From assembly GCF_964204645.1 (NCBI RefSeq), contig NC_134028.1:11207263-11271262 (forward strand): a DNA stretch of 64,000 bases, given 5' to 3'. Below are positions 1 to 47,553 of the stretch, piece after piece. The notes below the pieces were generated by a model that saw only the letters and a program-made list of their open reading frames with translations, was not told where the DNA came from and did no database searches. The position numbers were made by a program, and so were the translations under genes. Source of the stretch: Tubulanus polymorphus. Its lineage: Eukaryota; Animalia; Nemertea. Within the stretch, counting starts at the first letter, position 1. The number at the start of each line of letters is the position of its first letter.

Positions 1-230
1 GCGCTGGTGAAGTTATAAACATTGATATCGTCTTCCCGATAATTCAACTTGAATTATTGCCCATGTCATTCAAAAGTTCGTAATTCTTATAAATTTTTAT
101 CGACATTTTTGAAATTTTCAGGATCGATAGACATCTATATGTGGTGTTATGTGCTTTTTACCATTTTCAATTATCTTTATTAGTTTTCAAGTAATTGCTA
201 GTCAAACTTGAACAATACATTTTCTCTAGT
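1..230 (+). repeat. Left TIR of the ISL2EU-like element (partial, truncated by window start)
   Basis: gcgctggtgaagttataaac...tttctctagt matches the inverted copy at 4092-4218 and 17676-17776. Confidence 0.9.
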
Positions 231-395
231 ATTGCTGAAGTATATACGTGTGTGTTACTGTGTAAATGGAGGGAGTGCTTTCCAGCGAAAGTTAAGTTGC
301 GGTAGCAATCAGAAAACAAACTTCAATTTCAACAATGAAAATCGTTTTTTTAGAGGAAATCTTGATTAAAATAGGAAGAAATCATTTGGATCAAA

Positions 396-2564
396 ATGAG
401 TGACTTTGCAGATATAAGAGATTTTGAAGAGTCAAGCACTGGTATTTTAAGAAATTTTTTATGTAATAGAAGACTCTCCACTCAAGGCAGAAAAGAAGAG
501 TTAGTTGCGCGGTCGTTTGCTGCATGGGAGCAAAATGTTCCTCTCAAACTAAAAACTGCGGATATACAAAGACAGCTTGCAAATGATTATGAGAAGATTC
601 TAAAAAATATCAATAACGAAGATCCACTTGAGTTGAAACATTGGCATGTGGTGAAAGATGAAAAAAATCTACAGAACCTCGACTTAGGTAAAATATTTCC
701 TTTCATCATTAGAAATAGAGAATTTGGCGTCGACTATGTTGGAAGGTATAAACTCTGCAAGGCATACTCATATTTCAAGAGTGGATTTGTAGGAAAAATG
801 AAATATTGCCAGTGTTCCAACGCAACTGTTATTTCCGCCGACATTACGCCTTCCCAGAGAGTTCGAGGAGAAGCTAGATGTCCGTGGATAGCGTTCAGTA
901 AATCCGGAGATATATTGGCTGCATGGTGTACATGTCCTGCAGGATTTTCACAAACGTGTAATCAAGTTGCTGCGTGTCTTTATAAAGTAAATGAAAGTAT
1001 CGAAGCCATGAATAAATCGCCCGCCTGTACTGATATTCCGTGCACCTGGAACCAACCGGCATCAGATATTACGCCTGTTAAGATCAGGGACTTGAAAATT
1101 CGATGCGACAATTTGGGTAGCGGTGATCAGATTAGTGCGTGCAAAACATTTGACCCACGCCCAGAAGGTTACAGACAGGTAAATTCGTTTTATCCATTGA
1201 TTTAAATATGCAGTATTTTTTATGAGAGTTAAAATCAATTATTTTTCAAACTGATGATATCGCTTTTTCAGATCGCAGATATCGCTGGGAGAATGGAGAG
1301 GATGCATGTAGTATGCCCGCATGCAGCATTCTTAACCGGCATAGTTGACCAAACTGATGATTTCGCCAGACGGTCAAAGCTACCGTTGAATCTTCCACAA
1401 GCGGTCAACAGAATGTTATCATCAGGTATCCCTATGGCTGTATCGGATATTCTCCATTCACTACTACTTCAAGGCGAACAAAGACGCATAATAGAAGAAG
1501 CAACCAGGAATCAACGCAACAACAGACTTTGGAAAGAGCAACAACTCGGCAGGATCACAGCCTCCATTTCTCACATAGTGTACACCAAATTCGAGTCCCT
1601 AAAAAAGAATAAGAGGCCCATTAAAACATCGCAACTTGTGGCTGACATCATTTACGGCACAGCTCATAATGCATTAGATTACTTACAAGCCATACGTCAT
1701 GGAATTCGTCATGAAAATGATGCGCGACAAGCTATGACTGTGCGATTCAGCGTTCATCACAAAGAATTCAAGCTAAAGAGGACAGGTTTTATGGTAAGAT
1801 AATGTTACTTATTTCCAATTTTAAGTCTTACTAGACTTTATCCGTAAACGTTTATTGAACGCAGCTCTATTTACATGAAAAAAATCCATATCTTTTCAGG
1901 TACATTCAGATTTACCATTCATCGGGGCTACGCCCGATAATAAGACATTCTGCACCTGCTGCGAACCAAGTTTGGTGGAAATCAAATGTCCTCTGGTCGT
2001 ATACAATACGGACATTAATCAAACGTACGAACGATTGCCATATCTTCAATCAAAAAATGGTGAGATAAATCTGAAGAGAACGCATAATCATTACACTCAA
2101 ATTCAATGTCAGCTCGCGTGTTACGAAATGGAATCTGCATATTTTGTGATTTGGACTGGTTACGCTCAAGACCCATTACTTATCGAAAAGGTAGGCTATA
2201 ATACGTTTACGAATTTACTCAAACATTTTGGGTGTGATTTTGGATTCTGGCAGAAAATGTGTGTATAACCTTACATTTCTATTTTTAGATTGAATTTGAT
2301 CGCAGTTTCTGGTGCAAAGTGTCAGAGAACTTAGAATACTTCTACATGAATTTTGTTTTGCCTGCAATGACACTTAAGCCGCTATTTTTCTGTTCAATCT
2401 GCAAGAAAGTGTGTGTCGAAATAAGAGAAATGGCTGGGGATGAAGATGAATCCATCCAATGTACAAATTGCAAGTTATGGTTCCACACAAGTTGTGTTCA
2501 TGTCAAGCAATCTGTTATTTCTTGGAACTGTGATGTCTGTAGAGAAAAACCAAATTACTGTTAG
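396..2564 (+). CDS. Spliced SAP-like/SWIM zinc finger/YqaJ (lambda-exonuclease-like) nuclease/PHD-finger protein, about 623 aa; exons 396-1178, 1272-1793, 1900-2190, 2289-2564
   Basis: Three phase-0 GT-AG introns join the listed ORFs in frame. Motifs: CTCPAG..TCNQV (SWIM-like), W...GRITAS, GATPD...VEIKCP (PD-(D/E)xK), YTQIQCQL, and a C-terminal C4HC3 PHD (CSIC..IQCTNCKLWFHTSC..WNCDVC). Confidence 0.85.
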
Positions 2565-2672
2565 ATTATGTACAAGTTTATAATTCTGTTATTTATCGAT
2601 TAATCAAACACAAAACAAATGAATAATTATTTCACAGCGAATTTGAAAAGTCAAAGTTTTTGTTTTCGAACT

Positions 2673-3979
2673 TCAGTCACAGAGAGGCGGAAGAAGATTG
2701 CACAATGCCGAACAAACAATAATGATATCATCCATCAATGGTAATACTTTAATCGGAATAGTTGAAGTAAGCATACGATAGTTCTTGATCCTGCCAATAC
2801 ATTTTTCGACGTAGATTCTCGTGTTCGCGATTCGCGATGTAGATGTCATGTCATCTGATGTGAGCTGTGATCCAGACTGGAGACTTGGTGGTATCGATAA
2901 TGTTGCTCTGGCTAACATGAGTTCTTCTTGAATTTTAAAACCACGATCTGCCATTATCTGATCGTTTATCTCGAGCATATCTAGAAAGCCACTATCTTTA
3001 ACAATAAATTTGTCACTCGCGCGACCTCCATATCAAGAAGAAATATAGCGTATCAATCCCGTTGGAGACATTGCTACCAAGAACTTAACCGTACAGTGGT
3101 GTTTGTAGTCACTATACAACTGTGCCTGTATATCCAGTGCGGAGGGAACGTCCACAAAAATTTTGGTACAATCTATTATGCATCTGGTGTTTGGAAACCA
3201 CTTCACAAACGGTGCCGGCAATCCTCACTCACGTCTCTTTTAGTCGGCCACATAATCATCCATGATAGTTCCCTTGACATTAGACATATCCAGGTATTAA
3301 AAACCCTTGAAATGTGTCCTGGGCTCACATGAAATCGAAATCCTAGATCTTCGACTAACAAACCAAGTCTCAGTCTCATAACCACCATCAAAAACTCCTG
3401 CTCGTATGACAACTTTCTTTGTGGTCCTCTATTAGTCTTAGGTTGTTCAAAGTTTTCATCCTTTCTCCAGTATTTCATTACTGAAGCAACTGGTAAAAGC
3501 CATTCGAATACCATTTCGAACACACCCCGGCTCTCAAAGCCAGTGAAAAACCGTACGTCACACTCCTTGCATATGTCTTCAAATAACAAACTCGGTTGAA
3601 CTGTTTGCGTTGAGATTGCCACGGCCTCAGTTGCCTCCGTTTGCGTTGATATTCCGGTTTTCTTATATTCCTGCTTCTTGTATGGCTCATATTTCCGTGT
3701 TAGATTCCGTCTTGGCAGATTGTCACCTTCTTTCAATAAAAGTGTTGGAATATCTGGTTCAGTTTCATCGAAATGGTTTGAACAGATGTGATCGTTCGAT
3801 TTTGGAACGAAATCACGATCACCAATACGAATTGCTGTTATCCACTTTTCTCTTGATGCAGCATTACAGGGGAACGAATGGAATTTCAATTGATTTACAT
3901 GAGGAGCCTTGTACAAATGATCCGGCTTGTTTCGTTTATTTTCGCAGCTTTTCACAGAACATTTATCTTTCTTCCCCAT
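2673..3979 (-). pseudogene. THAP-domain + HTH + Harbinger/ISL2EU DDE transposase, disrupted
   Basis: THAP (CSVKSC..FHSFP..W..ICSNHF), LMVVMRLRLG..DLGFRF, IIDCT, YSDYKHHCTVKFLV, MADRGF, RIYVEKCIGRIK. Frameshift near 3220 and in-frame stop at 3033-3035. Confidence 0.85.
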
Positions 3980-4218
3980 TATTTTCGAAAACAAGTGCTC
4001 TTATTTCCATAGTTACGTTACATTGTGATGGCTAACAAAGTAGGAACCAGTAAAATTTTGAAATTTCCTGATACAAAGTTGCGCGTATGAGACTAGAGAA
4101 AATGTATTGTCCAAGTTTGACTAGCAATTACTTGAAAACTAATAAAGATAATAAAACGGTAAAAAGCACATAACACCACATATAGATGTCTATCGATCCT
4201 GACAATTTCAAAAACGTC

Positions 4219-4631
4219 AGTAGTATAGTCAGAGGGGGGTTCTGGCACAGCTAACTTTTGGGCTAACTGTGCTAATGTGAGCTAACTTTGAGCTAATGTA
4301 AGCTAACTTTTGGCTAATCTGAGCTAACTTTTGAGCTAATCTGAGCTAATGTCGGTTAACATCTGAGCTAATCTGAGCAAACTTTTGAGCTAATCTGAGC
4401 TAATGTTGGTTAACATCTGAGCTAATCTGAGCAAACTGTTGAGCTAATCTGAGCTAATATCGGTTAACATCTGAGCTAATTTGAGCTAATGTCGGTTAAC
4501 ATCTGAGCTAATCTGAGCTAACATTGAGCTAATGTGAGTGAATGAATGTTAATACCGAGCTAATGTGAACTAGTTATCGGGGTTATGTCTATGTGTTATA
4601 TGGAGCTAATGTGGGTTAACTATTGAGTTAG
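4219..4631 (+). repeat. Maverick left TIR with internal GAGCTAA(T/C) tandem motifs
   Basis: Inverted match to 17310-17669; carries one extra 54-bp unit. Confidence 0.95.
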
Positions 4632-4785
4632 GTATTTAGTTACCGGTTTTTATGGTAATCTATTGAGCTGGTGTGTGTGAAATTTAAAAACGAGATCATT
4701 TGAATATGGTTAAATCTGAATGAATATAAACATATGCAAATTATCAATTGTTTCGATGATTACGATCCTCGTTCTGAAAAATATC

Positions 4786-4834
4786 TGACGTCATGAGGGG
4801 TATATAACGTGTGTTCTCCAAAGGTGATTTCATT
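4786..4834 (+). promoter_or_regulatory. Putative Pol II promoter of the PC4 gene: CRE (TGACGTCA), TATA box, Inr-like TCATT
   Basis: TGACGTCA 4786-4793, TATATAA 4801-4807, TCATT at 4830 (about 29 nt after the TATA), ATG at 4848. Confidence 0.6.
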
Positions 4835-4847
4835 CGTTGAGTTGATC

Positions 4848-5698
4848 ATGGATACGCACACAACTCCGGTGTTGAAACGAAACATGTCTGAACCTGATGC
4901 TCCAAAAAAGAGACCTCGAAGACTGAATTTCAAGAATTTAAAGCTAGATATTAACGCTGCTAAGCCTGGTATGTATGTGTAATTAATTTGTTTGTTTGTA
5001 AAACATCCTCTCCTCCTTTGAGTTATTTATTGTTTCACTTGTAATGTAACGATATTATCTTTTCTTTTGTCATAGATACAGTTGTTAAAGAGAATGCTTG
5101 TGTACAAACAGATATAAAACTGAGTGAGTCTAAAGAAGAATACGTCTATGCGAAAGCGGATGTGAAACGTCATTATCTGGGCAATTTAGTGTTTGCGTGT
5201 GTCAGCGAGTGGCAGGATGTTAAACGTGTTGACATACGAACTTATGAACTCAGTGATGACCTTCGATTATTTCCAAAGAAATGCGGCATTAGCCTACACC
5301 TGCAAGAATGGGCTAATCTCGACTGGCATAGAGATTCCATAAATTCCGCCATCAATTCGTTTAATGAAAGCAACAATAACAATAATATCATAGAGGATTT
5401 TCGATTACACGTCGGTAGGAACCGATACGTGACCGTGTTCAAACGTTTCAATAAGGTTATAATCGACATTAGATATTTTTGTTATATAGCTGCAACGGAA
5501 CAACGAGTTCATACGAAAACCGGGATAGAACTATCTGAAAAACAGTGGGAGAAACTGATGAATATTTCTTTCGTTGATTTGGAACCTGAACTCGTTGGGA
5601 TGAAAGCGTGTATGTTCAATGATGATCATCAGAATCAGATGGGTGCTCTCCAGTGTGTTTACTGTAATCCTCATCCTGTATTCCAAATCGATGATTAA
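4848..5698 (+). CDS. Tandem double PC4 (p15/Sub1-like) ssDNA-binding/coactivator protein; exons 4848-4968 and 5076-5698
   Basis: Two PC4-like repeats (VSEW..VDIRTYE..PKKCGISL..EW and RYVTV..IDIRYF..TKTGIELSEKQW). A phase-1 intron gtatgt...ttgtcatag joins an upstream exon with basic PKKRPRRLNF in frame. Confidence 0.8.
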
Positions 5699-6137
5699 TG
5701 AATATATGTATCTCCTGTATCCTCAATCCATATATAGATAAATATCAAAAACTAAAGTCATGAATTATGTTAATAATCAAATGCTGGTTTTTTCTTTATT
5801 AATTTTAAAAAAGAATTATAGGGAAATTGGCATAAAAAAGTAGAAAAGGAAGAAAAAAACGGGAAAAGGTGCGCTTAGAGGGGGTACGAGTTAGATCCCA
5901 TCCCTGAAATAAAAAGAAATATAGAAAACACTTATAACGATATTAAACCAATGGTTTACCAACTTTCATATAATCTTAAATAAATAGATAAATAAATAAA
6001 TATATATATTAGTTAAATAGTTTAAAGTACAACTGAAAACATAAACGCATGTATAAGTGAGTGTAAATAAATCAATGTTTATAACTATGAATAAATAAAA
6101 ATATGCAAATATATATTAAGTATAACGACTTGTTCTT

Positions 6138-9100
6138 TTAATGATGATTTATCTCCGGAATTTTATGATGACCATAAGCATATGTGCTTACACCATCATC
6201 TAGTATATAACGTTTGTCGTCGTATGGTGATAATCCGACTTTATTTAAATTAACTGAATGTAACTTATGATTGAAGCTCCGGATAGACCGCATGTTAGCC
6301 ATCATACGTGATTGATTACGCAAGCAATCAACGTAGTTATTATGGGATACGGACTGCTTAACGACGTACTTCGCAACACCTTTTGCAGTTTTCTTTTCCA
6401 CAAGTGTTCCGTTGTTAACAGGAGAAAGATATGTCATTGAATACATCTTACTCCGTAAACCGCAGAACACTTTAACGGGAAAAGAATTGGTCTCATCCTT
6501 AAGTTTGCCTAGTACTTTCTTATTTTTGTCCGAGAATAAAGGATGGCCGGTGGGATAGGCTGAAAAGTCGAACTGGTCGAAAATCCCCGCCATATCCGCG
6601 TACAAATCGTAGCTGCGAATAGCGTATGTTAAACTATCCGTATCTGTAAAAAGAAGTTTAGCGTTATCCCCGTATCCTGCCTTGATGGTGTTAAAATGAA
6701 AATCATACATTAACGTTTTGCTTATGTCTAAAATTGAAAAGCCAAGATACACAGACTTATCCAACTTGATTGAAATCTGCTGTTTTTTTACCCCCACAAC
6801 ATTCTCCGAAATAATGTTCCATGAAATCGTAGATGGCTTCGCTAGAGCTTTTCTCAATTTCCCCGGTTCGTTAATAATTTGGTAGTTGATTCGATTCCTA
6901 ATGTTCTCCATTGTCTTGCCAAAACTTGCATTATTCAGTAATTTGTACATATCTTTCTCAAAATTGGATTTCGCATTTTTTCGGAATTCGGTATTCAAAG
7001 CAATGTACGGTGACATCCAGGCTGATTGTCGAAAATGGAGAACACGATGAATTTTGTTAATTTCATACCAAGTTTCATGTAAAGCCTCAAATTCGTAGTG
7101 TAGTAATGACAAGGATCTAATCCGTAGCTCTTATGAGCGAACTTGCGGAATTCCTCGAAAATATCTGAAAGTAGCAATACGTCGTTCTAAGATAGAGATC
7201 GTGATACTCGCCCATGTTTGCGTCAGGGTGTTGGTAAATGCCTCCTTAGGAGGGAGACTTGTCTCATTAAATTTCTCCGAACCTGTCATGTAGTCGTATT
7301 GGCAAACACCTTTACGTAACAAAAGATCAAGTTTATTGGCGGGGAACTCCGAGTTTAAATGAATGAATTTCTCTCTACCCGAATTGACCAAATTTTTCCG
7401 TAAGAGTACTGAGAGAGGTATTGAGAAATGCCAACGAGTCGATGAAGCGTAGGGGACCAAGTGTAAATCCGATAAACTTTTCAGTGTTCGTCGGGATCAC
7501 TGAAATTCTATACCCCCTAAATTCAACCAAGCCCAATGATCTAATAATTTCATGACTGTCATAACTTTTCAAGTTATGAAATATCAGAGCTATGAAATTA
7601 GGAACCCTATAACTCAGATTACATGAATTACAAGCTGGGCCTCTGTATTTGCCGGTTATATGATCGTGATCCCGACATTTCTTACCATTTATGGTTTCCT
7701 TACATATATGACAAATATCAGTTGATTTGAAGTGTGTTTCATCGACGTCGTTCATAACCAAAGGTTGAGGATTTTTGTAGTCCTGTAATATTTCCTCTGC
7801 TTTTTCGAGGAGGGATGTTAGGAATTTCTTCATAACATCGTCTCCTCTATAAAGGACTGTCGGATGGGAATGTCTGGTGTCAGGGCCAACGACTTTAAAA
7901 CAAAATCCAAACGGTTCATGAACCTGATAACGATATGTCCAAGATTGATTCTGGTTCAATTTACACCCCTCAATCGGTTCTAAAAACATTTCGAAGTCAG
8001 CATATATCACATATGGCAGTTTGTGCTGTTTTGTGACATTAACAAATTTCAAGACATTCTCATCTGTCGGTGACATGATTGTCTTTTGTATTCCTTGAAT
8101 ACAGTACCGAGTATGAACATCAAGATTCTCTTGCGATAAAAAAGAGTGCATGCACTTAAAACACCAAAAACATTTGGCTTTTTTTTTGTTTAAATGGAAA
8201 AGGAATTTACTAAGGTCATTTATCGAACAATAATGGGTGTTATCGTTATCAACTAGTAATAATAAATTAACATGATTTGTGCGTGGATTATCACTCAAAC
8301 GACGAACAAAAATATTTCCATCCTCATAGGCAAATACGTTAACTGATATATCGTTTTGCTGTTCGAAAATGGGTATTTGTTCTACGGTTACTGGATAATT
8401 GATATTGTTCATATTCAATTCGTTTCTGTACCGTAAATACTTAGATACTCGTTGGGGGTTCGTGTCCATTCGGTGGAGGTGGGCGAGTATAGACCATAGA
8501 AAGCACATATTGTCGAAATTTTGGATATTTATAACCCCTCCTCGTGAAACGATTACACGAGGAGAGCGTATATACGAACATCCACCTAATGGTTCATAAA
8601 TGCCGACGTGTAGATCGAACACTTCGACATAATCAAACCTCCAACGAGTACCCACAGTATTGTATTGTTCCAATAATTGGATCATTTTATTCTTAGCCTG
8701 ATCCAAGAGCTCGTCAAATTGTTCACCATTGAAAGCACTTCGAGTGTGGCTAGTAAAATACACAGTCCTTTGTTGATGGACACCATCGATATCTTTTTCT
8801 AAAATTATATGAATGCTGGTAAACCATTTTATCCCACCCAATCTACTTAAATCATCTTTAAGCAGTCGGATGAGATGCGGTTTGAGTTCGTTATAAAATT
8901 TAATTAAATCAAACTTGTTGTTTTCAGTGGATGGGAACTCGTATTTTCGTACATACCCCGCTAAGGCGCCACCTTGCCGGATCCCGATGAGGGCGAGAGT
9001 TTCCTCATCAAGATCCGGTAACTCTTCCCATTCCCATTCCAGTGGTGCCCCTCCTACTGCTGCTGCTGCTGCTGCTGCTGGTGGTGGTGCCCCTACTGCT

Positions 9101-9531
9101 GCTGGCACTGCAGCTGCTGGCACTACTGCTGCTGGCACTGCTGCTGCTGGCACTGCTGCTGCTGGCACTGCTGCTGCTGGCACTGCTGCTGCTGGCGGCG
9201 CCCCTACTGCTGCTGCTGGCACTGCTGCTGCTGGCAGCGCCCCTACTGCTGCTGCTGGCGGTGCCGGTGCTTCAAGGACCAGTCGCCGTCGTGCCGCTGG
9301 GATTGGGAGGGGTCTCGCACAACGTGATTGGTGCCTGTCCCGGTAGGCCGTCGTGCTAAACCCCTCCCCGCATTTGGCACAAAGCGGTTTACTCTTTTCG
9401 TGCACCCGGTTAATGTGCCGGGATCTCGAGCTGGCGTGTGCGAACACCAGCTCGCACATTGTGCACCCATACTGCTTGGGTAGGGCGACTGGTCCTAAGC
9501 TGAGTCGTTCTGATACTTGTTTCTGTGCCAT
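6138..9531 (-). pseudogene. Protein-primed family B DNA polymerase (pPolB) with N-terminal C2H2 fingers, terminal-protein region and EndoVII-like Zn domain; frameshifted and internally deleted
   Basis: YADFE, FHNLKSYD, FIDS (exonuclease); CRDHDHITGKYRGPACNSCN; KLLNNASFGK; FTDTDS; LRSKMY; DDKR. Split over four ORFs; polymerase motif A is absent. Confidence 0.93.
9043..9265 (-). repeat. Coding minisatellite (15-bp units, AAAVP/AAAVG) in the pPolB N-terminus
   Basis: Repeated ggcactgctgctgct units on the + strand. Confidence 0.9.
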
Positions 9532-9600
9532 CTAAAGAGAAAGAAAGGAAGACAGAAATAAATATAATGTGTGGATAATAATCTTTAAAATGAACGTGTT

Positions 9601-10281
9601 TTGAATAGATTGCTGTTAATTTTGATTCTGTTAATCTGTGGTAAAAGGCTGGAAATAGCTGATTTACCGCCGACTAAATTGCAAGGATGGTTCACGTCGA
9701 TTATCAATGGAATGACTGGTATCGGGAAGACAGTCTTTACTAAAAGATTGATTGAAGAAAGAATGTTCGATCCATTTCCCGATCGTATAGTTTGGGTGTA
9801 CGCCGAAGATCAGGAAATCTATCACGATACAGAGGGAGCTGAGTTTATTAAGGGTTTAACAGAGGAATTGTACGAAAGTTTGTCAGGTTCAGAGACAACA
9901 AAACTACTTATTTTGGATGATGTATTGAACGAGTGCGACCCCAGATTATTGGAGACCATTTTTACACGTGGTAGTCATCATAGAAAACTTCAAGTGATTC
10001 TAATATCACAAACCCTTTTCCCGAGAGGACCTCATTTTCGGACAATATCATTAAACACGCATTATATAGTTCTATTCAAGCATCCGAGGGATCGACTCCA
10101 AGTAAAGACTTTAGCGATGCAGTCCGGGTTAGGTAAATCGCTCGAGGAGGCGTTTACAGATGCGACCTCAATTTCACCGCGTGGATATCTATTTTGTGAT
10201 TTCAAACCACAAACGTCGGACAAATGGAGATTACGCACACGAATATTTCCAGCGAGGGATATCATATTTATTATAAGATAA
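9601..10281 (+). CDS. A32/FtsK-like genome-packaging ATPase (start codon uncertain)
   Basis: Walker A GMTGIGKT, Walker B LLILDD, TRGSHH, RTISLNTHYIVLFK. No ATG precedes Walker A; CTG at 9649 is a possible lost or alternative start. Confidence 0.9.
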   Translation: MNRLLLILILLICGKRLEIADLPPTKLQGWFTSIINGMTGIGKTVFTKRLIEERMFDPFPDRIVWVYAEDQEIYHDTEGAEFIKGLTEELYESLSGSETTKLLILDDVLNECDPRLLETIFTRGSHHRKLQVILISQTLFPRGPHFRTISLNTHYIVLFKHPRDRLQVKTLAMQSGLGKSLEEAFTDATSISPRGYLFCDFKPQTSDKWRLRTRIFPARDIIFIIR

Positions 10282-10328
10282 AAAGTATTAAATAATGTAA
10301 TTTCACGCGAACATCGTCAATTGATAAA

Positions 10329-10645
10329 ATGAGGAACCACTTGCATTTGAAGGAATTCGCTCCTCACTTAAGACTTTTATGCGATGGAAAGAAAAATATG
10401 CGCGATGCGATTCTGTCATCATCGTCGAACAGATTAGTGAAAGTTATTTGCGAAGTCTGTATAAATTCATTAAGAGGGAATATCAAACACAGCGAATCGG
10501 ATAAAAAGAAATTGAAGCGACATAAGAAGTGGATTCGAATAGACGAGTACCGATTAAATCGAAAAAATCATTAATCGTGCAAAAAGGCGGTTTCCTTGGA
10601 CTGATACTGAAAGGAATCGGTCGACTACTCGGGTTTATGGAATGA
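10329..10645 (+). pseudogene. Small basic virion protein ending in QKGG|FLGLILKGIGRLLGF amphipathic peptide (frameshifted)
   Basis: ORF 10329-10574 continues in another frame as VPIKSKKSLIVQKGGFLGLILKGIGRLLGFME* (stop at 10645); GG|F resembles an adenain cleavage site. Confidence 0.65.
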
Positions 10646-11379
10646 AGAACGTTGAAAAACTTTACGTTGTTCCGGAATCATTTATTCCAATGATTGAAAA
10701 AATCACATCAACCGATGAAAAGCGAGAATCTTCGAGTGGCGAAACGAATCGCGTGAAAAATATAGAAAGTCAAATGTCCGATATCCTTCAAATGGATAAT
10801 GATGTGAAGGACGATGTGAAATTGAAGATGTATAACGACGCGTTGAATAAACTAATGCAAATCGAAAAACATTCAAAGGAGTCGACGATCACTAATTCTA
10901 ACATAGTAAGTAAAAGCAGTGCATTGAATACCGATCGTGATTTAAAACGAACTACCGAAACTAAAAGTGAATTCGACCAGGAAATTTTGAATAACGTACC
11001 GATAAACTATAGAAAGAAATCGGAAATGTTATTGGAGCGAATAAAGCGATATTCCGAAATATTGTCATGGACCGATAAGGGGGAGATAATAGTAAAAGGA
11101 GTCAAAAGAGATGATAGTAATATCGTCGATTTAATCAATCTCTGCATGACACCTAACAAGTCTGAACAAATGAACGGACTCGACGATTTCATCAAGGCAT
11201 TACAAGATATGTCCGTTCCACAGACGTTTATCCCGAATAAATTCGTTAGAAATAAATTAATTAACAATCGCCCGAACGTTAAGAATGAATTCGAAGCAAA
11301 GATGACGAAGAGGAGGAGGATGACTACGCCATCTAAATATTCTAAAGATATAGATTTCGAAAATTGGATTTATATGTGA
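10642..11379 (+). CDS. Conserved-type Maverick hypothetical protein (245 aa)
   Basis: Intact ORF in the morphogenesis block; the LSWTDKGEII..SNIVDLI motif resembles Polinton uncharacterised proteins as I recall them. Confidence 0.65.
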   Translation: MKNVEKLYVVPESFIPMIEKITSTDEKRESSSGETNRVKNIESQMSDILQMDNDVKDDVKLKMYNDALNKLMQIEKHSKESTITNSNIVSKSSALNTDRDLKRTTETKSEFDQEILNNVPINYRKKSEMLLERIKRYSEILSWTDKGEIIVKGVKRDDSNIVDLINLCMTPNKSEQMNGLDDFIKALQDMSVPQTFIPNKFVRNKLINNRPNVKNEFEAKMTKRRRMTTPSKYSKDIDFENWIYM

Positions 11380-11407
11380 ACATATTTTTGTTTAGGGTAT
11401 TTGTAGA

Positions 11408-11451
11408 ATATAATGATAATAATAATAGTAATAATAATAATAATAATAATG

Positions 11452-11496
<45 letters not shown>
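11408..11496 (+). repeat. (AAT)n microsatellite
   Basis: Direct read. Confidence 0.95.
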
Positions 11497-11498
<2 letters not shown>

Positions 11499-11694
11499 GC
11501 TAATTTATCATCGGATTACCATTTTTATTCGATAGTCGTTGATACGTTTTGATGAATCTAATGTTAGTTTCAAATTCTAATATACGTTGTCGTCATCGTT
11601 GTCGTCGAGTGATCTATATCTGAAAGAGAGTGAATGGAGAAAATTTAGATTCTATCTCATTTTATCCAAGTTCACTTAGTATCTAGCTCTCGTA

Positions 11695-12232
11695 ATGGTA
11701 ACATCAAAAATGATCGACGTTGTTAATGTAGTAGCGACTGCAAATCTTAATTGTAAGCTCAATCTAGAGGAGTTGTCTAGGACAATGTTAAACGTAGTGT
11801 ACAACCCTCGTAAATTTAACGCATTAATTCTTAGGAATAAGCGCATCAGGGGCACGTGTCTATTATTCACAAGCGGGAGAATAGTATGTAACGGAGCAAA
11901 GTCATCCAGCGAGAGTTATACCAGTGTGCGACGATTTGCTAGATTGATACAAAAGATTAATACCACTGCCGCCGTTAGATTGACAGAATTTAAAATTCAA
12001 ACAATGACAGGTGTTGCGAAAAACGGGAATTAAAGTTAACTTATCCCAACTACACACGTTATTAGGTGGACGATATGATCCGGAGATCACCCCCAGCCTC
12101 ATATCTCGCTGTGGAAATGTTACATTTATAATACAACATAAGGGATGTGTGATTATTAGCGGGTGTAAATCTTTAAAGCAGATTATTTCGGTGTTGCCGC
12201 ATGTGTTGTTCAATATGCATATGTGTGAATAA
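11695..12232 (+). CDS. TATA-binding-protein (TBP/TRF) homologue encoded by the Maverick, with a 1-nt frameshift in an A5 run (12019-12023)
   Basis: VNVVATANLNCKLNL..YNPRKFNALILR..LLFTSGRIVCNGAKS..RRFARLIQK..FKIQ aligns with TBP repeat 1 (QNIVSTVNLGCKLDL..YNPKRFAAVIMR..LIFSSGKMVCTGAKS..RKYARVVQK..FKIQ). The next frame gives repeat 2 (YDPEITPSL..GCVIISGCKS). Confidence 0.9.
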
Positions 12233-12342
12233 TCGGGATAACGAAATGATGAAGTCTGATTGTTTACCGCAATCGCTCATTAACATTAATTGTAAAAAAT
12301 TCAACATTTCGTGTTGTGTGCAACAGTCAAAAGTGGAAGACG

Positions 12343-13415
12343 ATGTCGACTCGCCTGACCTCGGACTTGAAACAGATACTGAACAACCTGTACTACAACC
12401 CAGAAAACCCAAGCGCTTTCGGTGGTTTGAATGCATTACATCGCGCCGCGAAGCTGTCCGGAAATGAAATTGGTATAGACGTTATTAGAGACTTTCTGAA
12501 ATCGCAAGAGGCATATACGCTTCATCGTCCTACTCGCGTGCGTTTCAAGAGGAATAGAACAATAGTATCCGGTATCAATCAACAGCATCAAATCGATTTG
12601 TGTGATTTATCGAATATATCTAAGTATAATAAAGGAATTAAATATCTACTGGTTTCGATCGACGTTTTTTCTAAATTCGCTTACGCCATACCCCTAAAGT
12701 CGAAAAATGGTGGAGAAGTTAGTAGCGCATTCGAAGGTATAGCGATTAAAAGTCGTATGAAAAAAGTTCAAAGTGATAAGGGCAAAGAATTTTTGAATGC
12801 ACATTTTAGCAAGATAACAAAGAAGTATAACATTCATCACTTTACGAGCGAGGATACAGTGAAATGTAGTATTGTCGAGCGATTCATCAGAACGTTAAAG
12901 GGAAGATTATTCCGCTATATGACCGCGTACAAGACGAAAACCTATATAGATGTTCTTCCTAAGATTATAAATGCCTACAACAATTCGTATCATAGGTCGA
13001 TAAAAATGAACCCGTCTCAAGTTAGTGAAAATAATGAGAAGTTGGTGTGGGAAAACCTATACGGAAAAAAGAGTCTCTTATGAACAAACAGTACAAGTTT
13101 TCTATTGGGGATACCGTCAGAATCGCGAGATATAAGAAAGATTTCGACAAGGGTTATTTACCCGGATGGTCGCACGAAATATTCTCGGTTTCAAAACAGA
13201 TCCCGCACAACCCACCGACATATAACATTACAGATCAAATGGGTGAGCAGGTTCAGGGACAATTCTATCATCAAGAATTACAAAAAGTAATTAAAAACGA
13301 CGATGTTTACCGAGTGGAGAAGATTATAAGAAGACGCGGTCGAGGAAGAAACCGCGAGTTGCCTGTGAAGTGGTTGGGATACCCGACGAAATTCAATTCG
13401 TGGATTCCGGCATGA
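12343..13415 (+). CDS. Retroviral-like (RVE) DDE integrase with C-terminal SH3-like and chromodomain, split into two frames at about 13065-13083
   Basis: LYYNP, HQIDLCD, QSDKGKEF, VERFIRT, YNNSYH; then FSIGDTVRI..GW..E.F and YRVEKII..VKWLGYP..FNSWI. Confidence 0.92.
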
Positions 13416-14161
13416 GAAGAAGAATGCATGACTTTTATCTAACATTATTGAGCGATGGAAGCGTGGATGAATTTCCAGGAAACTCTCAAGAAAAGTTTAA
13501 AGTGAAATTGAGAGGGACGATTAACCTAGAAGGTAATTGGGAAGTCGCGTTAGTTCACATAAATTTCAATTGCGAATTCGACAACGTAATTACTGGAGAA
13601 TTTTATGTGGACTCTGGTGATGGACAATGGAGCGACGCACCGGCGGCGAATAAAATACAACTAATGTATAATGAGATAAGCCAACGAGTTTCGATTAGAT
13701 TATCCGATAACGCGAAAATTAAGTTCAGGAAGGAATTAGCCTGGGTGTTGGGCTTCCCTTCGATGCATGTAGTCGACGCCGACATTTTTAGTGATGATAT
13801 TACCGAAACTAAAATCATAGGAAAAGCAAGTTCATCCGATAACTTCGGCTACGTCAAGGTCATAGCGTCTAGACCGGTCGACCTTATGGCCGATAATCAT
13901 AACATCCTAATCTATTCAGAGTTAATTCAACATCAACAAGTTGGACACGATAGCGCACCTTTGTCAAGGATTGTAGGTGTAAACGATATAAATCAAACAG
14001 TTATAGATCGTGAATTTAGACGACCTTATTATCTTCCGCTCAGGAATAATCGACTGGACGTTATTGAAATCTATATGTTTAAGGACAGTGGTACTCCGCC
14101 CATCTTTAAAAGGGGCAAAGTATCCCTCGTGTTACATTTTAGACGAAAGTTGTTACTATGA
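13412..14161 (+). CDS. Minor capsid protein (penton, single jelly-roll)
   Basis: FYLTLLSD..FPGN...FKVKL...LEGNWEVAL and C-terminal YYLPL..IEI..D..G..F..G..LVLHFR, typical of the Maverick penton. Confidence 0.85.
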   Translation: MRRRMHDFYLTLLSDGSVDEFPGNSQEKFKVKLRGTINLEGNWEVALVHINFNCEFDNVITGEFYVDSGDGQWSDAPAANKIQLMYNEISQRVSIRLSDNAKIKFRKELAWVLGFPSMHVVDADIFSDDITETKIIGKASSSDNFGYVKVIASRPVDLMADNHNILIYSELIQHQQVGHDSAPLSRIVGVNDINQTVIDREFRRPYYLPLRNNRLDVIEIYMFKDSGTPPIFKRGKVSLVLHFRRKLLL

Positions 14162-14553
14162 AAACCGAATGTATCATAGATCAAGACGCTTGCTGTAATT
14201 ATTATTTACGGCAGGCGGGTGGCGGGAATGATTTCTATCACGGTAGACCGATACAAAAAGGAGCAGGATTCGGATCTATTCTGGGAGGATTATTCAGGGG
14301 AGCGATCCCTTTGTTTAAGACAATTGCAAAGAAAGCAGCACCACATATAGTTAAAGCCGGTGTCAACACAATAGGTGACGTCATTGGTGGAAGAGATCTA
14401 GGAGAATCGTTATTGAATAATGGTACAACAGCCGTTCGAAATGTATTAAAAGCCCCGAATAATCAGAGAAAACGTAAAGTAAAATCGAAGTCGAATAGAC
14501 GTCGTCGGGTGAAATGTCAATGTGGAACAATCGAAAGCCTGGAGGCATATTAA
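14158..14553 (+). CDS. Core/membrane-lytic precursor protein (adenovirus pVII/pX/pVI-like role inferred)
   Basis: YY..QAGGG, QKGAGFGSILGGLFR amphipathic segment, Arg/Lys-rich tail. Confidence 0.7.
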   Translation: MKTECIIDQDACCNYYLRQAGGGNDFYHGRPIQKGAGFGSILGGLFRGAIPLFKTIAKKAAPHIVKAGVNTIGDVIGGRDLGESLLNNGTTAVRNVLKAPNNQRKRKVKSKSNRRRRVKCQCGTIESLEAY

Positions 14554-14616
14554 TTAACTGATCGTTATCATTGTTAACATCTTCATTGTCATCGCCAACA
14601 TCAACACCGATATAAC

Positions 14617-15934
14617 ATGGGTTTGAAAGTACACAAAGACACGCACCCTGCACTCAAGAGTGAATTGGACATCTTTTCACTGCCGATGACTAATATCACT
14701 ATGGAGTCTGCACATTATGCTAAATATCAACCGTTAGCTACAATTACGGATAGCGGAAATATCGATTTTCTTATAACCGGTAACTCACAACATTATCCAG
14801 ATTTAAACCACACGTGGTTAGATGCAACGTTTAAAATTGTAAAGGGCGACGGCAGTCCGATGAACAATGACAAAGCAGGTGATCCTGTAGCTGCCCTTAT
14901 TAATTACGCTCAGTCACTATTCAGTGACGTCGAGGTACGATTCAACGATAAATGAATTAGTAATGGAATGGACTTACACCCGATTAGAGCCGCTATTGAG
15001 AACTTGATATTTTGTCAATCATCTACGAAACCGGGATGGATGGAAAGTGCTATGATATATAAAGACGAAGCCGGGCGTATGAACGATACAGATCCTAGAA
15101 GCGCGAATTGTAACTCGGGTCTCAAAGAACGTTATGATTTGCTGAAAAAGCCGAACAATCTCGTAAAAGCGCAACTTCGATTACACAGCGATGCGTTCGG
15201 ACTAGATAAACTACTTCTCTCGAATGTAACGGTTAAAGTTAAGTTAATCAGAAGTAAGGATGCATTTTGTTTAATGTCCCCGAATCCAGATGTAAAGTTC
15301 GAAGTGAAAATTGAAAACGCTACATTAAATGTACGACGAGTACAACTAAGCCCGTCAATTCAGTTAGCGCATGAGAAAGCATTGTCCACTAGTAATGCCA
15401 AATACCATTTTGTAAAAACAAGCATTTTTCCGGTGAATAAACCACGTGGAGTACGCAGTGTTATAAGAGATAATCTGATAATTGGAAATTTACCGAGGAA
15501 TATAATTATCGGATTCTGCTCGGACGAATCGCTGAGTGGAAGTTACGATAAAAACCCGTTCAACTTTAAACACTATGATATCGCTAGAATTGCGGTGTCC
15601 ATTAATGGGTCGCAAGTTGAAGCATCGGCAATAAATTTCGAGTCGAAAGACTTGAGTGAAGGATATTTCTCATTGTTCATTGGCACCGGTATATTGTATC
15701 AAGATAAGACAATTGGAATAACCAGAAAAGATTATGCTAACGGATATTTCCTAACCGCATTCGATGACACCGGATTTCGGATTCAGTGACCTGGCTATCA
15801 GTAAAAAGGGTTCCCTTCGCGTGGAATTGGAATTTTCAAAACCTCTACCGGAAAATATTAATTTACTATTATACACCAATTTTGATGAAGTGTTGGAAAT
15901 TACAAAAGACCGCACTGTTGTCACAGATTTTTAA
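14617..15934 (+). pseudogene. Major capsid protein (double jelly-roll) with in-frame stop (14953-14955) and frameshift near 15765
   Basis: KSELDIFSLP, QSLFSDVEV, LHSD, KNPFNFKHYD, LTAFD; continues in another frame as TPD..GSLRVELEFSKPL..LEITKDRTVVTDF* ending at 15934. Confidence 0.9.
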
Positions 15935-15938
15935 AAAG

Positions 15939-16406
15939 ATGTTGTATACCGATCAATTAATTAATATTTTACGCGAAGATACTTGTGCGAACAAATTGTT
16001 TAAAGGTGTCTACGCAGCTGATCGTTTACCCGAACCTCCTGAGTATCCCAGTATTTTTATTGTAAACTCTCAAAATAGTGATAAGAGCGGAGAACATTGG
16101 ATTTGTTTTATAATATTTGCAAATAAACAAGGTTATTTCCTAGATAGTTACGGACTACAACCGCAATTCTATAATATTATATTAAGAAACTATTTACATA
16201 CACACTGTCATTACTGGGATTATTCTCGAGTTAGAGTACAAAGTTTGTTTAGTACAAATTGCGGATATTATTGCATATATTTTGTAACTCTTCTCTCACA
16301 CGGTATGTGTTTTCCCGAGATATTCAGTAGTTTTAGTAAAACTGATTACGAGTATAATGATTATTATGTTAAACAATTTGTTAGCAAGTATTTCATTAGA
16401 ATGTAA
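15939..16406 (+). CDS. Adenain-like cysteine protease (155 aa)
   Basis: GVYAAD.LP, GEHW, DSYG, Q...STNCGYYC catalytic motifs; true ATG at 15939. Confidence 0.92.
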   Translation: MLYTDQLINILREDTCANKLFKGVYAADRLPEPPEYPSIFIVNSQNSDKSGEHWICFIIFANKQGYFLDSYGLQPQFYNIILRNYLHTHCHYWDYSRVRVQSLFSTNCGYYCIYFVTLLSHGMCFPEIFSSFSKTDYEYNDYYVKQFVSKYFIRM

Positions 16407-17309
16407 ATTTCATCTTAAAAAAGTGATAAAAAATTGTAAAATATTTTTCGATACAATGCAAAAATTTCGGTAACGAGTATACATATTTCACATTGAGAAT
16501 ATCTAAACATAAGAATTATGTAGAATTAAGGAAAATAATACGTAGCTTACCTTAGTAAATGAGTTTTCTTTCCTTAGTCTCCTTTGGTGACGATAATGTC
16601 GATGATGATGATGATAGCGTGGTTCTGCATTGTTGGATACTTCGACGCGTTGGAACGAAAAAGACCGTGTTGCGGTAGTCGGCATTTTTAAATGTTCGAT
16701 CAACAATAGGATGTTAAAATTTACCAATCAACGTAATTTTTAAGTTACCACAGAATCATACCATTGGTCTACTTTAAATCACGTGATACAGATGTCCGAC
16801 GATAAATTCATTTATGATAGTATTCTCGGAAGCAAAACCTAATAAATCACATTGAACCCAGTATTCATGATGAAGATTATAAAGAGAAAAAATGCCATTA
16901 CCGTCGGTGGGAACTCTCGAAATTACACCGGAGTGTTATTGTTCTGTATTCTCATTAACAGGTCATCTGAGTTCGCATATCCCAACTATCATGTTAGCCC
17001 CTATTGTTATTCAACTACATTCACCATCACATCCACTCCTGTCTGTTAAATTCATAGAATTTCAGACACATTCAATAAAAATATCTTGCTATACTTATAG
17101 TTTTGTCTCCCCTGTTTAATTAACACTCGAAATAATTACATCATACTTACATCATACATACCATACTTATAACATATACTTTGTTCTATCAGATTTTACT
17201 GAACCCCCTTTCACAATACTTTCAGAAATTTACTCATATACCAGAAATAGTATAAACAACCCGCTGTTAACCCTCATCAGCACAACAATAACACACATTA
17301 GCTCAATAG

Positions 17310-17669
17310 CTAACTCAATAGTTAACCCACATTAGCTCCATATAACACATAGACATTAGCCCGATAACTAGTTCACATTAGCTCGGTATTAACATTCATT
17401 CACTCACATTAGCTCAATGTTAGCTCAGATTAGCTCAGATGTTAACCGATATTAGCTCAAATTAGCTCAGATGTTAACCGACATTAGCTCAGATTAGCTC
17501 AAAAGTTTGCTCAGATTAGCTCAGATGTTAACCGACATTAGCTCAGATTAGCTCAAAAGTTAGCTCAGATTAGCTCAAAAGTTAGCTTACATTAGCTCAA
17601 AGTTAGCTCACATTAGCACAGTTAGCCCAAAAGTTAGCCGTGCCAGAACCCCCCTCTGACTATACTACT
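17310..17669 (-). repeat. Maverick right TIR
   Basis: Reverse complement of 4219-4631 minus one 54-bp unit. Confidence 0.95.
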
Positions 17670-20600
17670 AATGTCGATTAAAATTTATAAGAATTACGAA
17701 CTTTTGAATGACATGGGCAATAATTCAAGTTGAATTATCGGGAAGACGATATCAATGTTTATAACTTCACCAGCGCACATTGTTGCATTAAATTGATAAA
17801 TGAGTGATATCATAAAAGATTTAATTATCAGCCGAGTTCATTGATATTTTCACTTTGTTTCTATCTCATTCCAATCCAGAGATATGAACGAAATAAGAAA
17901 ATCAAACGGGGCAAAAATAGGGACAAAAAATTCAACAATGCGGACCCGGCGGGTACCCAAAAAATGGCGCCTGGAAACTGTAGGTAAAAAGGCTTATTAT
18001 CTACATTTTCAAATATAGGCTACAAAGAAATTTCGAACATAATGCAGATATCAACACTTGGCATCTGAACCAAACACCCCAGAAATTCGATACTTTATCA
18101 CAATTCGAAATTTTGATTATTCAAATCCACTTCAAGGAATTTCTACATTTCTAATCTACCAATCTAGTTTGAATGAGCAAATTACAAATGCCATATATTA
18201 GTAATTTCACAACACACCAATATTGACCACTAAGACTTAGAACTACAAAAGTAAATGTTGGAACAGTTGGTTGCAGGATACTGATGACCTATATTGATAC
18301 CTGCATAAAGCAGAGGCGGATCCAGAGGCCAACTTTGAAGAACTTGTCACATCCCAATAAAGAACTTTCATGTCCAAGGCAATTAGGTGTATCCCTGCAC
18401 TGAAATGTGCCAATTATCTTTGTTGACAAAATGAAAAAAAAATGTGCCCAAAAAATTTGATGGACATGTACAAGTCTCACAGGTCCCCCTGGATCCAACC
18501 CACTATAAAGCATGAAACGCATATATAGATTATGCCCTAATATCGTTGTATCATTCACCTAAACTGTGAAAACCACAACCTTTGGTTAGCTGCTTGAGAT
18601 CAAACATGAGCAATGTTATATGAGTAACCTCTATACAGACACATAGAAGAAATAATATGCTCATAGGTTCCCTTCTGGAAAGTCCCAAAAAGTAGCAGTT
18701 TCTACATTATTATCATATGAATAATGGATCTCCATATTCATCCTAGCATTGAACGACTAAAATCGTCAGTGTATCGGCTGAGGAGCTGTGCAGGTGGAGA
18801 TATAGTTTAATATGCAGTGCAGTCATGCATGCCACAGAGCTGATTGCCTCAGATTGCTGTGTGCCTGGACAAATGCTTAAATTTGTTCGACAAATCATAT
18901 GATAGCCAAACGTCGCTGTGATATGGTAGTTTGACATCGGTTACCAATTTTCTCATTTTTTGGTAGTGATTAGAACAGCAGTTGAGACCTATGGGTGCCA
19001 TCTTTATTTAGTACATTGGTAGCACAGTGGTATCTAACACAGTGATCATTTCAACATTTCAATCAAGGTGGTCTCAAATGTGTACTTGCCTCACATTCAC
19101 ATGGTTGCTGTTCATGTCAATGCATGAAATAATGTATCCAATTCAATTCACAAAACTTCAACAGCCATATATCACTTCAAATGTCTTAAAATTACAGCAA
19201 GCAGCAAGTCAAACGTAGTGGAAGTACCTAACAGTACAGCATTTTGAAGGATACACGTGTTTTCATGCTTCTTGTAATCTTAAGACATTTTCAGTAATAC
19301 ATAGCCATGGAATTGATGTATATTTATAATGGACACATGTGGTTTTTAGGTTAAAGGATTTGCTGGGTTAATGCATAGTTAGTTCAGATAAAAAATAATG
19401 CCCATTGAATTGGCAATGAAAATGGAATAATGGTGTGTATAGGTCAAACTTCTTACTATGCTATCAAACTAGCAAATTTGAAAGGGAAAATTGTTGAAAT
19501 TGCATATTCGCTTGGCTATGAGAATCATTCATTGGTCCTGCAAATCCGAAACAAATAAGAGTCTAGAGTACCATTGCCAGTTCATGCCCAGTTCTTACTG
19601 AATCATGTTATTACGTAAGCACTTACGTGCTAAATAATGCAACATTTTAATACCAATATCTTGACTAAAAATGTAGAGGCAGTTTTCTTGAAACAGCTTC
19701 ATCTTTCTTAAAATATCATTGAAAATTTCAACAAAATAACCGTGATATCAAGAAGTCTGGAAAATATCAAAGAGCTCAGCTGCATATTACAGGTATGTGA
19801 TTATTCAATATGGTTTCTTAAAACAGCATGTAAATTCCATAATTTTATAATTCAAAAATATTACTAGTTTCTCAATAATGAATATCACATTGGGCAGCTT
19901 TAATATTATATTTTTTACATGCTGTTTTTTAATTTGAAAATATCAGCATAATCAACTGATTTCTACTGAGATGTTTTTTAGACATGTTGATGATACCCTA
20001 ATGTTATTCTCTGAAAATCTTCAATGAATTCAGTTTATCTATCACTTGAATAATACAAAATAGGGCAAGCGATAAAGCAGTAGTTCCCAACATAAGAATG
20101 GTTTACAGATGGCCTAGGGCTCAAATGATGATGTTCATAAATCAGGCCAAAATAAATTCATAAACATGAATCATCTACATTATAATTGCAAAATGTGATT
20201 TAATGAATTGTGACTATATACTGGACAAGGATAGCTGAAAAATGTGCAGAGGACAAATTAAACGTTCATCAAAGTATTAGGGTATTCTAAGATGAACATA
20301 GGTCATTTGATTGAACTTCAACCAATTTCAATAATGTATTCAATGTTAGAATTATGTAAGTTCTCTCAACCGGCTAACAGATCCACAAAAAGCATTAATC
20401 TCTATAGAAACATACAAAGAAAGCAACAAAAGCAAGGAATTCAATGAGAAAAGTTCTCGAACCAAGCCCAGTAGCTAAGTTAACAAACATTTAATTGGTC
20501 ACAAGTTCTAAAGAAGAAACATTGCATAGTTATGTATTACCCCAAGGTGATCGTTGAATGTGGATTGATGGACGACGACGCTCTAGATAATATAGGCAAG

Positions 20601-41380: not shown

Positions 41381-41414
<34 letters not shown>

Positions 41415-47400: not shown

Positions 47401-47515
47401 TATCGATGAGCACTGACTATAGCTAATTATCGTGAAAACATGTTGAGTAATGTCACATGTTGATTACGACCTTAAAGCACATATTGACACTATAGTCATA
47501 AGTTATATTATATTA

Positions 47516-47553
<38 letters not shown>

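Follow-up and report, generated by a model that had tools for sequence, protein, structure and literature searches.

Beta- and gamma-herpesviruses encode TATA-binding proteins (TBPs) of their own, namely KSHV ORF24, EBV BcRF1 and HCMV UL87, which serve late promoters with a TATT box (PMC7498053 and PMC12529657, accessible portions of both). According to the same portions, KSHV ORF24 carries additional domains at both its N- and its C-terminus, makes direct contact with the Pol II CTD, is without the acids that contact TFIIB, and requires five more viral factors. The C-lobe phenylalanines are needed even by this KSHV mimic (PMC12529657, accessible text). TBPs are also encoded by large dsDNA viruses, where almost all are paired with a viral TFIIB and the first stirrup acid is about 40% conserved; most of the viral TBPs studied have lost the TFIIB acids (PMC7221094, accessible text).

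In the literature searched, with Repbase and subscription papers outside its scope, Polintons are linked to TBP by a single label. It is the word “TBP” in the legend to Figure 5 of Starrett et al. 2021 (PMC8502044, also in the preprint), attached to a MELD virus or related element with an adintovirus-like PolB. In the accessible text the label belongs to a section that deals with non-animal datasets, and neither a family nor residues nor promoters are analysed there. It denotes a TBP-like gene in a Polinton-type element, which may or may not be of the family described here. In the accessible parts of that paper, TBP is absent from the text of Supplementary Figure S2 and from the adintovirus/Polinton genes described in sections 3.1-3.2. 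The main texts of PMC11131425, PMC11161782 and bioRxiv 10.64898/2026.06.19.733378, as far as accessible, do not mention TBP, TFIID or PC4; “polinton” does not occur in the accessible text of PMC7221094, and the accessible text of PMC12220804 has the searched terms in its reference list only. Thus the novelty that a preliminary description of this locus had left to a search is partial: given the legend label, a Polinton-borne TBP is not wholly unreported, but the family is barely mentioned in searchable print. Polintons have no RNA polymerase of their own, and the literature searched yielded nothing on how the expression of their capsid and integrase genes is timed.

The window, a stretch of 64,000 nt of Tubulanus polymorphus DNA, contains a Polinton/Maverick element of 13,451 bp at positions 4219-17669. 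Polintons are taken by us to be defined by terminal inverted repeats (TIRs), AGT termini and a 6-bp target site duplication (TSD), and the element fits this definition, with termini AGTAGT...ACTACT and flanks AACGTC/AATGTC that agree at 5 of 6 positions. The left TIR (4219-4642), which has internal 10/22-bp repeats, and the right TIR (17299-17669) are identical at 363 of 370 aligned bases. The element is inserted in a terminal repeat of a THAP/DDE_Tnp_4 DNA transposon, whose remaining parts lie at 1-4218 and 17670-17776, with THAP, HTH_Tnp_4, DDE_Tnp_4, alkaline-exonuclease and PHD ORFs and a right terminal repeat broken by the Polinton. The reverse arrangement, a DNA transposon nested inside the Polinton TIR, was considered and is the wrong way round, since it is the Polinton that interrupts the transposon's repeat.

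Like Polintons of the Beta adintovirus class, the element combines TIRs and a 6-bp TSD with pPolB, rve integrase, packaging ATPase, protease and capsid genes; unlike the class as described, it carries a TBP, and the window copy is defective. Genes are on the + strand with the exception of pPolB. A PC4 open frame without an ATG at its start (5045-5695, PF02229 in two stretches) is followed by pPolB on the - strand (6138-9531, several frames) and by an A32/FtsK-type packaging ATPase (9589-10281, start uncertain) with 40% identity, E=6e-35, to the ATPase of the metagenomic relative L013. Next are a small conserved Polinton ORF (10329-10574) with matches in relatives L003 and L013, and a 245-aa Polinton ORF (10642-11379) with a weak match in L003 (E=7e-06). 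Downstream of the TBP gene are the rve integrase with a chromodomain (12343-13415), which is in two frames with a break near 13065 and is a single ORF of about 360-400 aa in relatives; a minor capsid (penton)-like ORF (13412-14161); a small basic ORF (14158-14553), presumably pX-like; a major capsid protein (MCP)-like gene (14617-15789) with an in-frame stop near 14953; and an adenain-type cysteine protease (15885-16406) whose PF00770 match, E=8e-04, is under the cut-off. Both capsid genes are named from position and from matches in relatives and have no Pfam match.

The pPolB is of the Beta type: its four pieces show no PF03175 match and about 52% identity to Corynactis adintovirus PolB. Missing from it are about 194 residues, motif A included, that are retained by P0210, a PolB annotated in Tubulanus polymorphus and 96-97% identical to the window PolB over its two long segments. 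Because P0210 retains this stretch, less decayed sister copies of the element should be present. Decay of the window copy extends over several genes, with a split integrase, a stop in the MCP gene and a pPolB that has both a deletion and several frames. The pPolB and rve integrase expected of a Polinton are both present, and both are broken. On the - strand a pyrimidine tract that ends in AG lies immediately 5′ of the PolB ATG (9532-9560) and suggests a spliced 5′ exon; another pyrimidine tract with AG at about 5050-5071 (+ strand), near the start of the PC4 frame, likewise suggests one and is a possible splice acceptor. In the PolB N-terminus a 15-bp tandem repeat (9024-9307) forms an Ala/Pro/Val-rich linker after C2H2-like motifs.

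The TBP gene is at 11695-12232 (+ strand), with a start at 11695 or 11710, and consists of two repeats in two frames. The first repeat is complete in frame 1 (ATG 11695, 112 aa) and matches PF00352 with E=1.2e-24 over profile positions 2-85 of 85. The second is in the next frame, at 12023-12229, and also exceeds the PF00352 cut-off, with E=6.1e-05 and 23.2 bits against 22.9. With an X at the junction the read-through protein is 178 aa long, and every one of the 35 distinct PDB sequences that it matches is a TBP or a TBP fusion, with a best E of 2.8e-28. The closest intact relative, P0012 (173 aa), is 52% identical over 171 residues. Its alignment changes frame between the stretches 11710-12027 and 12014-12229, which places the break at about 12014-12027, across the A run at 12019-12023. 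A word-index protein search gave 7 matches, 6 of them archaeal-type, and the ESM Atlas search gave generic TBP clusters only. No BFVD match at E<=0.001 is more than 19% identical. An intron and a programmed frameshift were considered and ruled out, as the offset is of one base and the relatives are all single ORFs. As assembled, this copy would yield only a 112-aa fragment and, like the PolB, integrase and capsid genes of the element, is probably inactive; its frameshift, which may be an assembly error, is consistent with the general decay of the element.

The observation in the preliminary description, made from the letters of the window, is upheld by these results, and its interpretation in part. 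The description had claimed a compact two-repeat TBP of about 178 aa after frame correction, and PF00352 is present in both halves, so its proviso that a profile search might find no TBP can be set aside. The gene has neither an intron nor an N-terminal extension, only the 178-aa core, and the extra A proposed at 12019-12023 corresponds to the one-base offset in the assembled sequence that P0012 maps to about 12014-12027. Its placement between a conserved Maverick ORF and the integrase is likewise correct, with the 245-aa ORF before and the rve frame at 12343 after. Between that ORF and the TBP gene is an (AAT)n microsatellite that ends in AATAAA (11401-11500).

What did not hold is the idea that this one element had captured a TBP; the gene belongs to an old family common to many Polintons. 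Relatives were collected from a HMMER library search, in which the best 150 of 3,935 matches were used, and from a profile search with 20 matches; they are unnamed TBP-like proteins, mostly of 159-189 aa, and 6 of 182 rows were dropped as fragments, multi-repeat or fused sequences. In a metagenome scan 255 stretches matched; confirmation left 125, and 80 were retained for analysis. Family-type TBPs, of about 170 aa, are found in 21 of the 80, and other copies flanked by Maverick genes, for which the preliminary description had proposed a search, are thereby in hand: 19 of the 21 have Polinton gene matches beside the TBP. The other two are short contigs (1.3 and 1.8 kb) with neighbours in common with L016/L017. 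The scan began from TBP, so that these counts bear only on Polintons that carry one. The family loci fall into about 10 lineages, in which the TBP immediately precedes the integrase, precedes it with one ORF in between, or closely follows it. It should be noted that L013 and L016 have an Alpha-type PolB (PF03175), unlike the Beta-type PolB of the window. In L003 (1321-1806) and L009 (2199-2693) a PC4 gene (PF02229) is directly between TBP and integrase, with a weak match in L020; the element PC4 may serve as a coactivator, or may do no more than bind ssDNA.

A saddle fold is predicted for P0012, with a pLDDT of 95.5 and TM scores of 0.92-0.95 to the top-ranked PDB TBPs. This is the two-repeat saddle of cellular TBP (yeast 1ytb, human 1cdw), and by its 52% identity to P0012 the window TBP would be expected to share it. 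The residues that face DNA and partners were mapped over 38 family and 14 cellular rows in yeast numbering, with residue roles, other than those of helix 2 and L205, taken from the accessible text of PMC12529657 and PMC7221094. In the N-lobe the DNA face is kept as in cellular TBP: N69 in 38 of 38 rows, V71 in 31, F99 in 29, L114 in 36 and F116 in 37. The C-lobe is unlike that of cellular TBP. Both N159 and V161 are absent from all 38 rows and replaced by T/S/A and S/T, respectively; thus only the first of the two central asparagines of canonical TBP is present. L205, which limits base 2 of the box, is kept in 4 of 38 rows and P191 in 9, and S163 and T124 are also replaced family-wide. F190 is kept in 26 rows and F207 in 32, but in the window and P0012 lineage both are lost (F190 to T/S, F207 to Q) and K211 is changed. 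Of the four intercalating phenylalanines of canonical TBP the window protein has F41 and F58, but T132 and Q147 at the remaining two positions.

The partner-facing side, with which the helix-2 basic residues are grouped here, as distinct from the DNA face, is kept as in cellular TBP. Residue 186 is acidic in 30 of 38 rows and residue 188 in 36, and R137 and R141 of helix 2 are kept in 36 and 37. By alignment the acidic TFIIB stirrup of canonical TBP (E186/E188) appears to be retained in the family and in the window protein, where it is represented by D128 and E130. The family thus shares the TBP fold with the proteins of large dsDNA viruses but keeps the TFIIB acids that most of those studied have lost. 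It also differs from KSHV ORF24 (as described in the accessible portions of PMC7498053 and PMC12529657) in being a bare core of about 170 aa with TFIIB acids: both the N-terminal Pol II-binding domain and the C-terminal DNA-binding extension of the ORF24 type are absent from the 178-aa window TBP, whose lineage, unlike the KSHV mimic, has lost both C-lobe phenylalanines.

A candidate promoter box is found in the relatives. With p-values that are optimistic, because the motif and the distance range of -30 to -47 were chosen after data inspection, GTAAGAA is enriched upstream of the genes of L013 (5 of 8, p=0.004), and in 14 elements, the window included and L013 and L011 excluded, RTAAGA occurs 20 times (sister loci included) over 8,079 nt of upstream sequence, compared with 34 times over 52,170 nt of other sequence (p=1.1e-5). 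The antisense control gave 3 upstream and 19 other matches, and canonical TATAWA is not enriched upstream in the same elements (p=0.29). Over 16 elements RTAAGA is present before 7 of 15 integrase, 7 of 13 penton, 4 of 9 MCP and 2 of 8 ATPase genes, and before 0 of 12 TBP genes. L016-L018 have RTAGGA in its place, and L014 and L029 have neither form upstream. When the two forms are taken together, 20 of 39 upstream RTA(A/G)GA matches in the loci are at -30 to -47, measured from start codons picked by the analyst, and when discovery and sister loci are dropped 9 of 22 are in this range (p=0.005, with the same optimism). In the relatives, a YRTA(A/G)GA box is enriched before late-type genes, at a distance of about 35 nt.

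Taken with the residue pattern, the box suggests that an intact family TBP would act as a promoter-selectivity factor, which brings host TFIIB and Pol II to a non-standard box at the late genes of the element. We regard this reading as probable, with a good measure of doubt. The TBP would be made early from a host-type promoter without the box; its altered C-lobe would then allow it to bind YRTA(A/G)GA, the kept stirrup acids would recruit host TFIIB, and host RNA polymerase II would transcribe the capsid, packaging and integrase genes, with an early/late switch as the outcome. A scan of the window ORFs found no TFIIB domain. The herpesvirus vTBPs, as far as the accessible text describes them, provide a model that works in a like manner, with a viral TBP, a non-standard box and host Pol II for late genes, without the Polinton TBP being one of their number.

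The preliminary description had proposed that the TBP redirects or competes for host preinitiation complexes. Redirection to the element's own promoters fits better with the rewired DNA face and with the box upstream of the relatives' genes, and competition fits less well. In a competing role the TBP would be a decoy that sequesters TFIIB, TFIIA or the TBP regulators of the host, or obstructs its TATA boxes, and so damps host transcription. Better conservation of the partner-facing acids and helix-2 basic residues than of the C-lobe DNA face would agree with this, as would the loss of F190 and F207 in the window lineage. However the DNA face of the N-lobe hardly varies, that of the C-lobe carries specific changes that have become fixed (T/S/A for N159 in every row), and the box is before the elements' own genes, so that we consider a decoy unlikely.

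The promoter-selectivity reading can also be questioned from the side of the box, which resembles TAAG, and the late TAAG of baculoviruses is an initiator. The box might then be an initiator, or be read by a host factor, and the TBP might be an architectural protein that bends DNA for integration, replication or packaging. The gene adjoins or is near the integrase in nearly all loci, and the evidence for the box is weak in the window. The kept TFIIB-stirrup acids and the clustering of the box at a TATA-like distance from start codons speak against such a role, which appears quite improbable.

The weakness of the box in the window bears on a further reading. Of 7 sense RTAAGA matches in the window element 3 are upstream of genes, at -56, -86 and -120, and none is at -35; they include a weak candidate promoter at 10273-10278 (+ strand), 56 nt before ORF 10329, and the best-scoring site in the element at 13326-13331 (+ strand), 86 nt ahead of the penton start codon. 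De novo searches for a promoter motif in the window gave nothing significant (best p=0.125). This pattern would be compatible with a lineage whose DNA face has changed further, or with no link between box and TBP at all. It is conceivable that the family is a transcription factor as proposed, but that the window/P0012 lineage has changed its target or is losing function, and that the family box does not apply to it; the losses of F190 and F207 and the change at K211 point the same way as the missing box at -35. Against this, the 52% identity of the window and P0012 proteins over 171 residues, with the same Q at 207, suggests constraint, and we hold this reading also to be of low probability.

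A more specific form of the promoter-selectivity reading is offered tentatively, and we think it rather doubtful as a whole. Animal Polintons would have a one-protein late-gene switch, in which a TBP with a rewired C-lobe reads a private box and docks host TFIIB, and box and protein co-evolve by lineage. The window lineage would have gone furthest, with a binding mode that dispenses with the second phenylalanine pair and differs from those of canonical TBP and the herpesvirus mimic. The promoter-selectivity reading, if true, would describe a viral TBP that keeps its contact with host TFIIB, unlike most viral TBPs in the accessible text of PMC7221094, and a natural series of altered-specificity TBPs. 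A conserved element-borne TBP, together with a candidate box, makes the question of Polinton gene timing testable. The window copy itself is a fossil, and its value is in the family to which it leads.

The TBPs of this family are distinct from animal TBP. The window TBP has 28-52% identity with the five family members it was compared to, and 31-35% with four cellular TBPs; for two animal TBPs, themselves 90% identical to each other, the figure is 33-35%. Four long rows were removed from a set of 73, and in the resulting 69-row tree, also used for the AU test, 38 family rows including the window are on one side of a branch with an SH-aLRT of 98; the 73-row tree, with the four long rows kept, does not resolve the base. 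An orthologue or retrocopy of animal TBP would group with animal TBPs, but a tree in which the window and P0012 are forced to join 4 of them is rejected (AU p=0.0027). A motif check for TBPL1-like sequences among the retrieved proteins found none, and the trees are without TBPL1/TRF2. F116 is kept in 37 of the 38 family rows, and TBPL1 has a Trp at an N-lobe position that we read as equivalent to F116 (PMC7221094, accessible text).

Purifying selection acts on the TBP family in the relatives: of 13 TBP pairs drawn from related loci, a set that does not include the window copy, 11 give dN/dS values of 0.107-0.25 and 2 are saturated. In most close pairs the dS of the TBP resembles that of the integrase (0.52/0.52, 1.36/1.03, 1.35/1.16 and 0.25/0.17), and the resemblance is weaker in one with a partial integrase (0.52/0.26). 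Across 7 lineages the TBP and the integrase show no significant congruence (Mantel r=0.34, p=0.125). The preliminary description had named a one-off host TBP retrocopy, evolving neutrally, as the outcome that would overturn its reading, and although an intronless and frameshifted gene could suggest one that landed in the element and is decaying, this can be dismissed by its 33-35% identity to animal TBPs that share 90%, by the AU test, and by the presence of the gene in 19 other Polinton loci, where it is under selection.

Some TBPs outside the family were also found. Among the other 59 kept metagenomic loci, L032 is the sole Polinton match. It represents a second Polinton type (456-14733), with a PF03175 PolB, DJR capsid, PLA2-like and rve genes, and carries a more canonical TBP at 7175-7732. 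In the tree this TBP is outside the family, and a single origin with the family is not rejected (AU p=0.395, 45 rows); a separate capture is possible. Other short, extension-less and unnamed TBPs (P0031, P0048, P0128, P0142, P0143, P0180 and L019) branch between the family and cellular TBP, and are possibly also element-borne. Scans of IMG/VR found no family locus and one archaeal-type TBP, in a locus without Polinton genes (L001, 9962-10576), where it is beside ORFs that by inspection are ribonucleotide reductase-like and methyltransferase-like.

Elsewhere in the window an LTR retrotransposon is found at 40999-47647, with near-identical long direct repeats about 6.1 kb apart and RT, RNase H and integrase on the - strand. 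Arrays of a 154-bp tandem repeat are at 49058-49665 and 52956-53563, and between them, at 51708-51911, is a perfect 92-bp inverted repeat with a 20-nt spacer.
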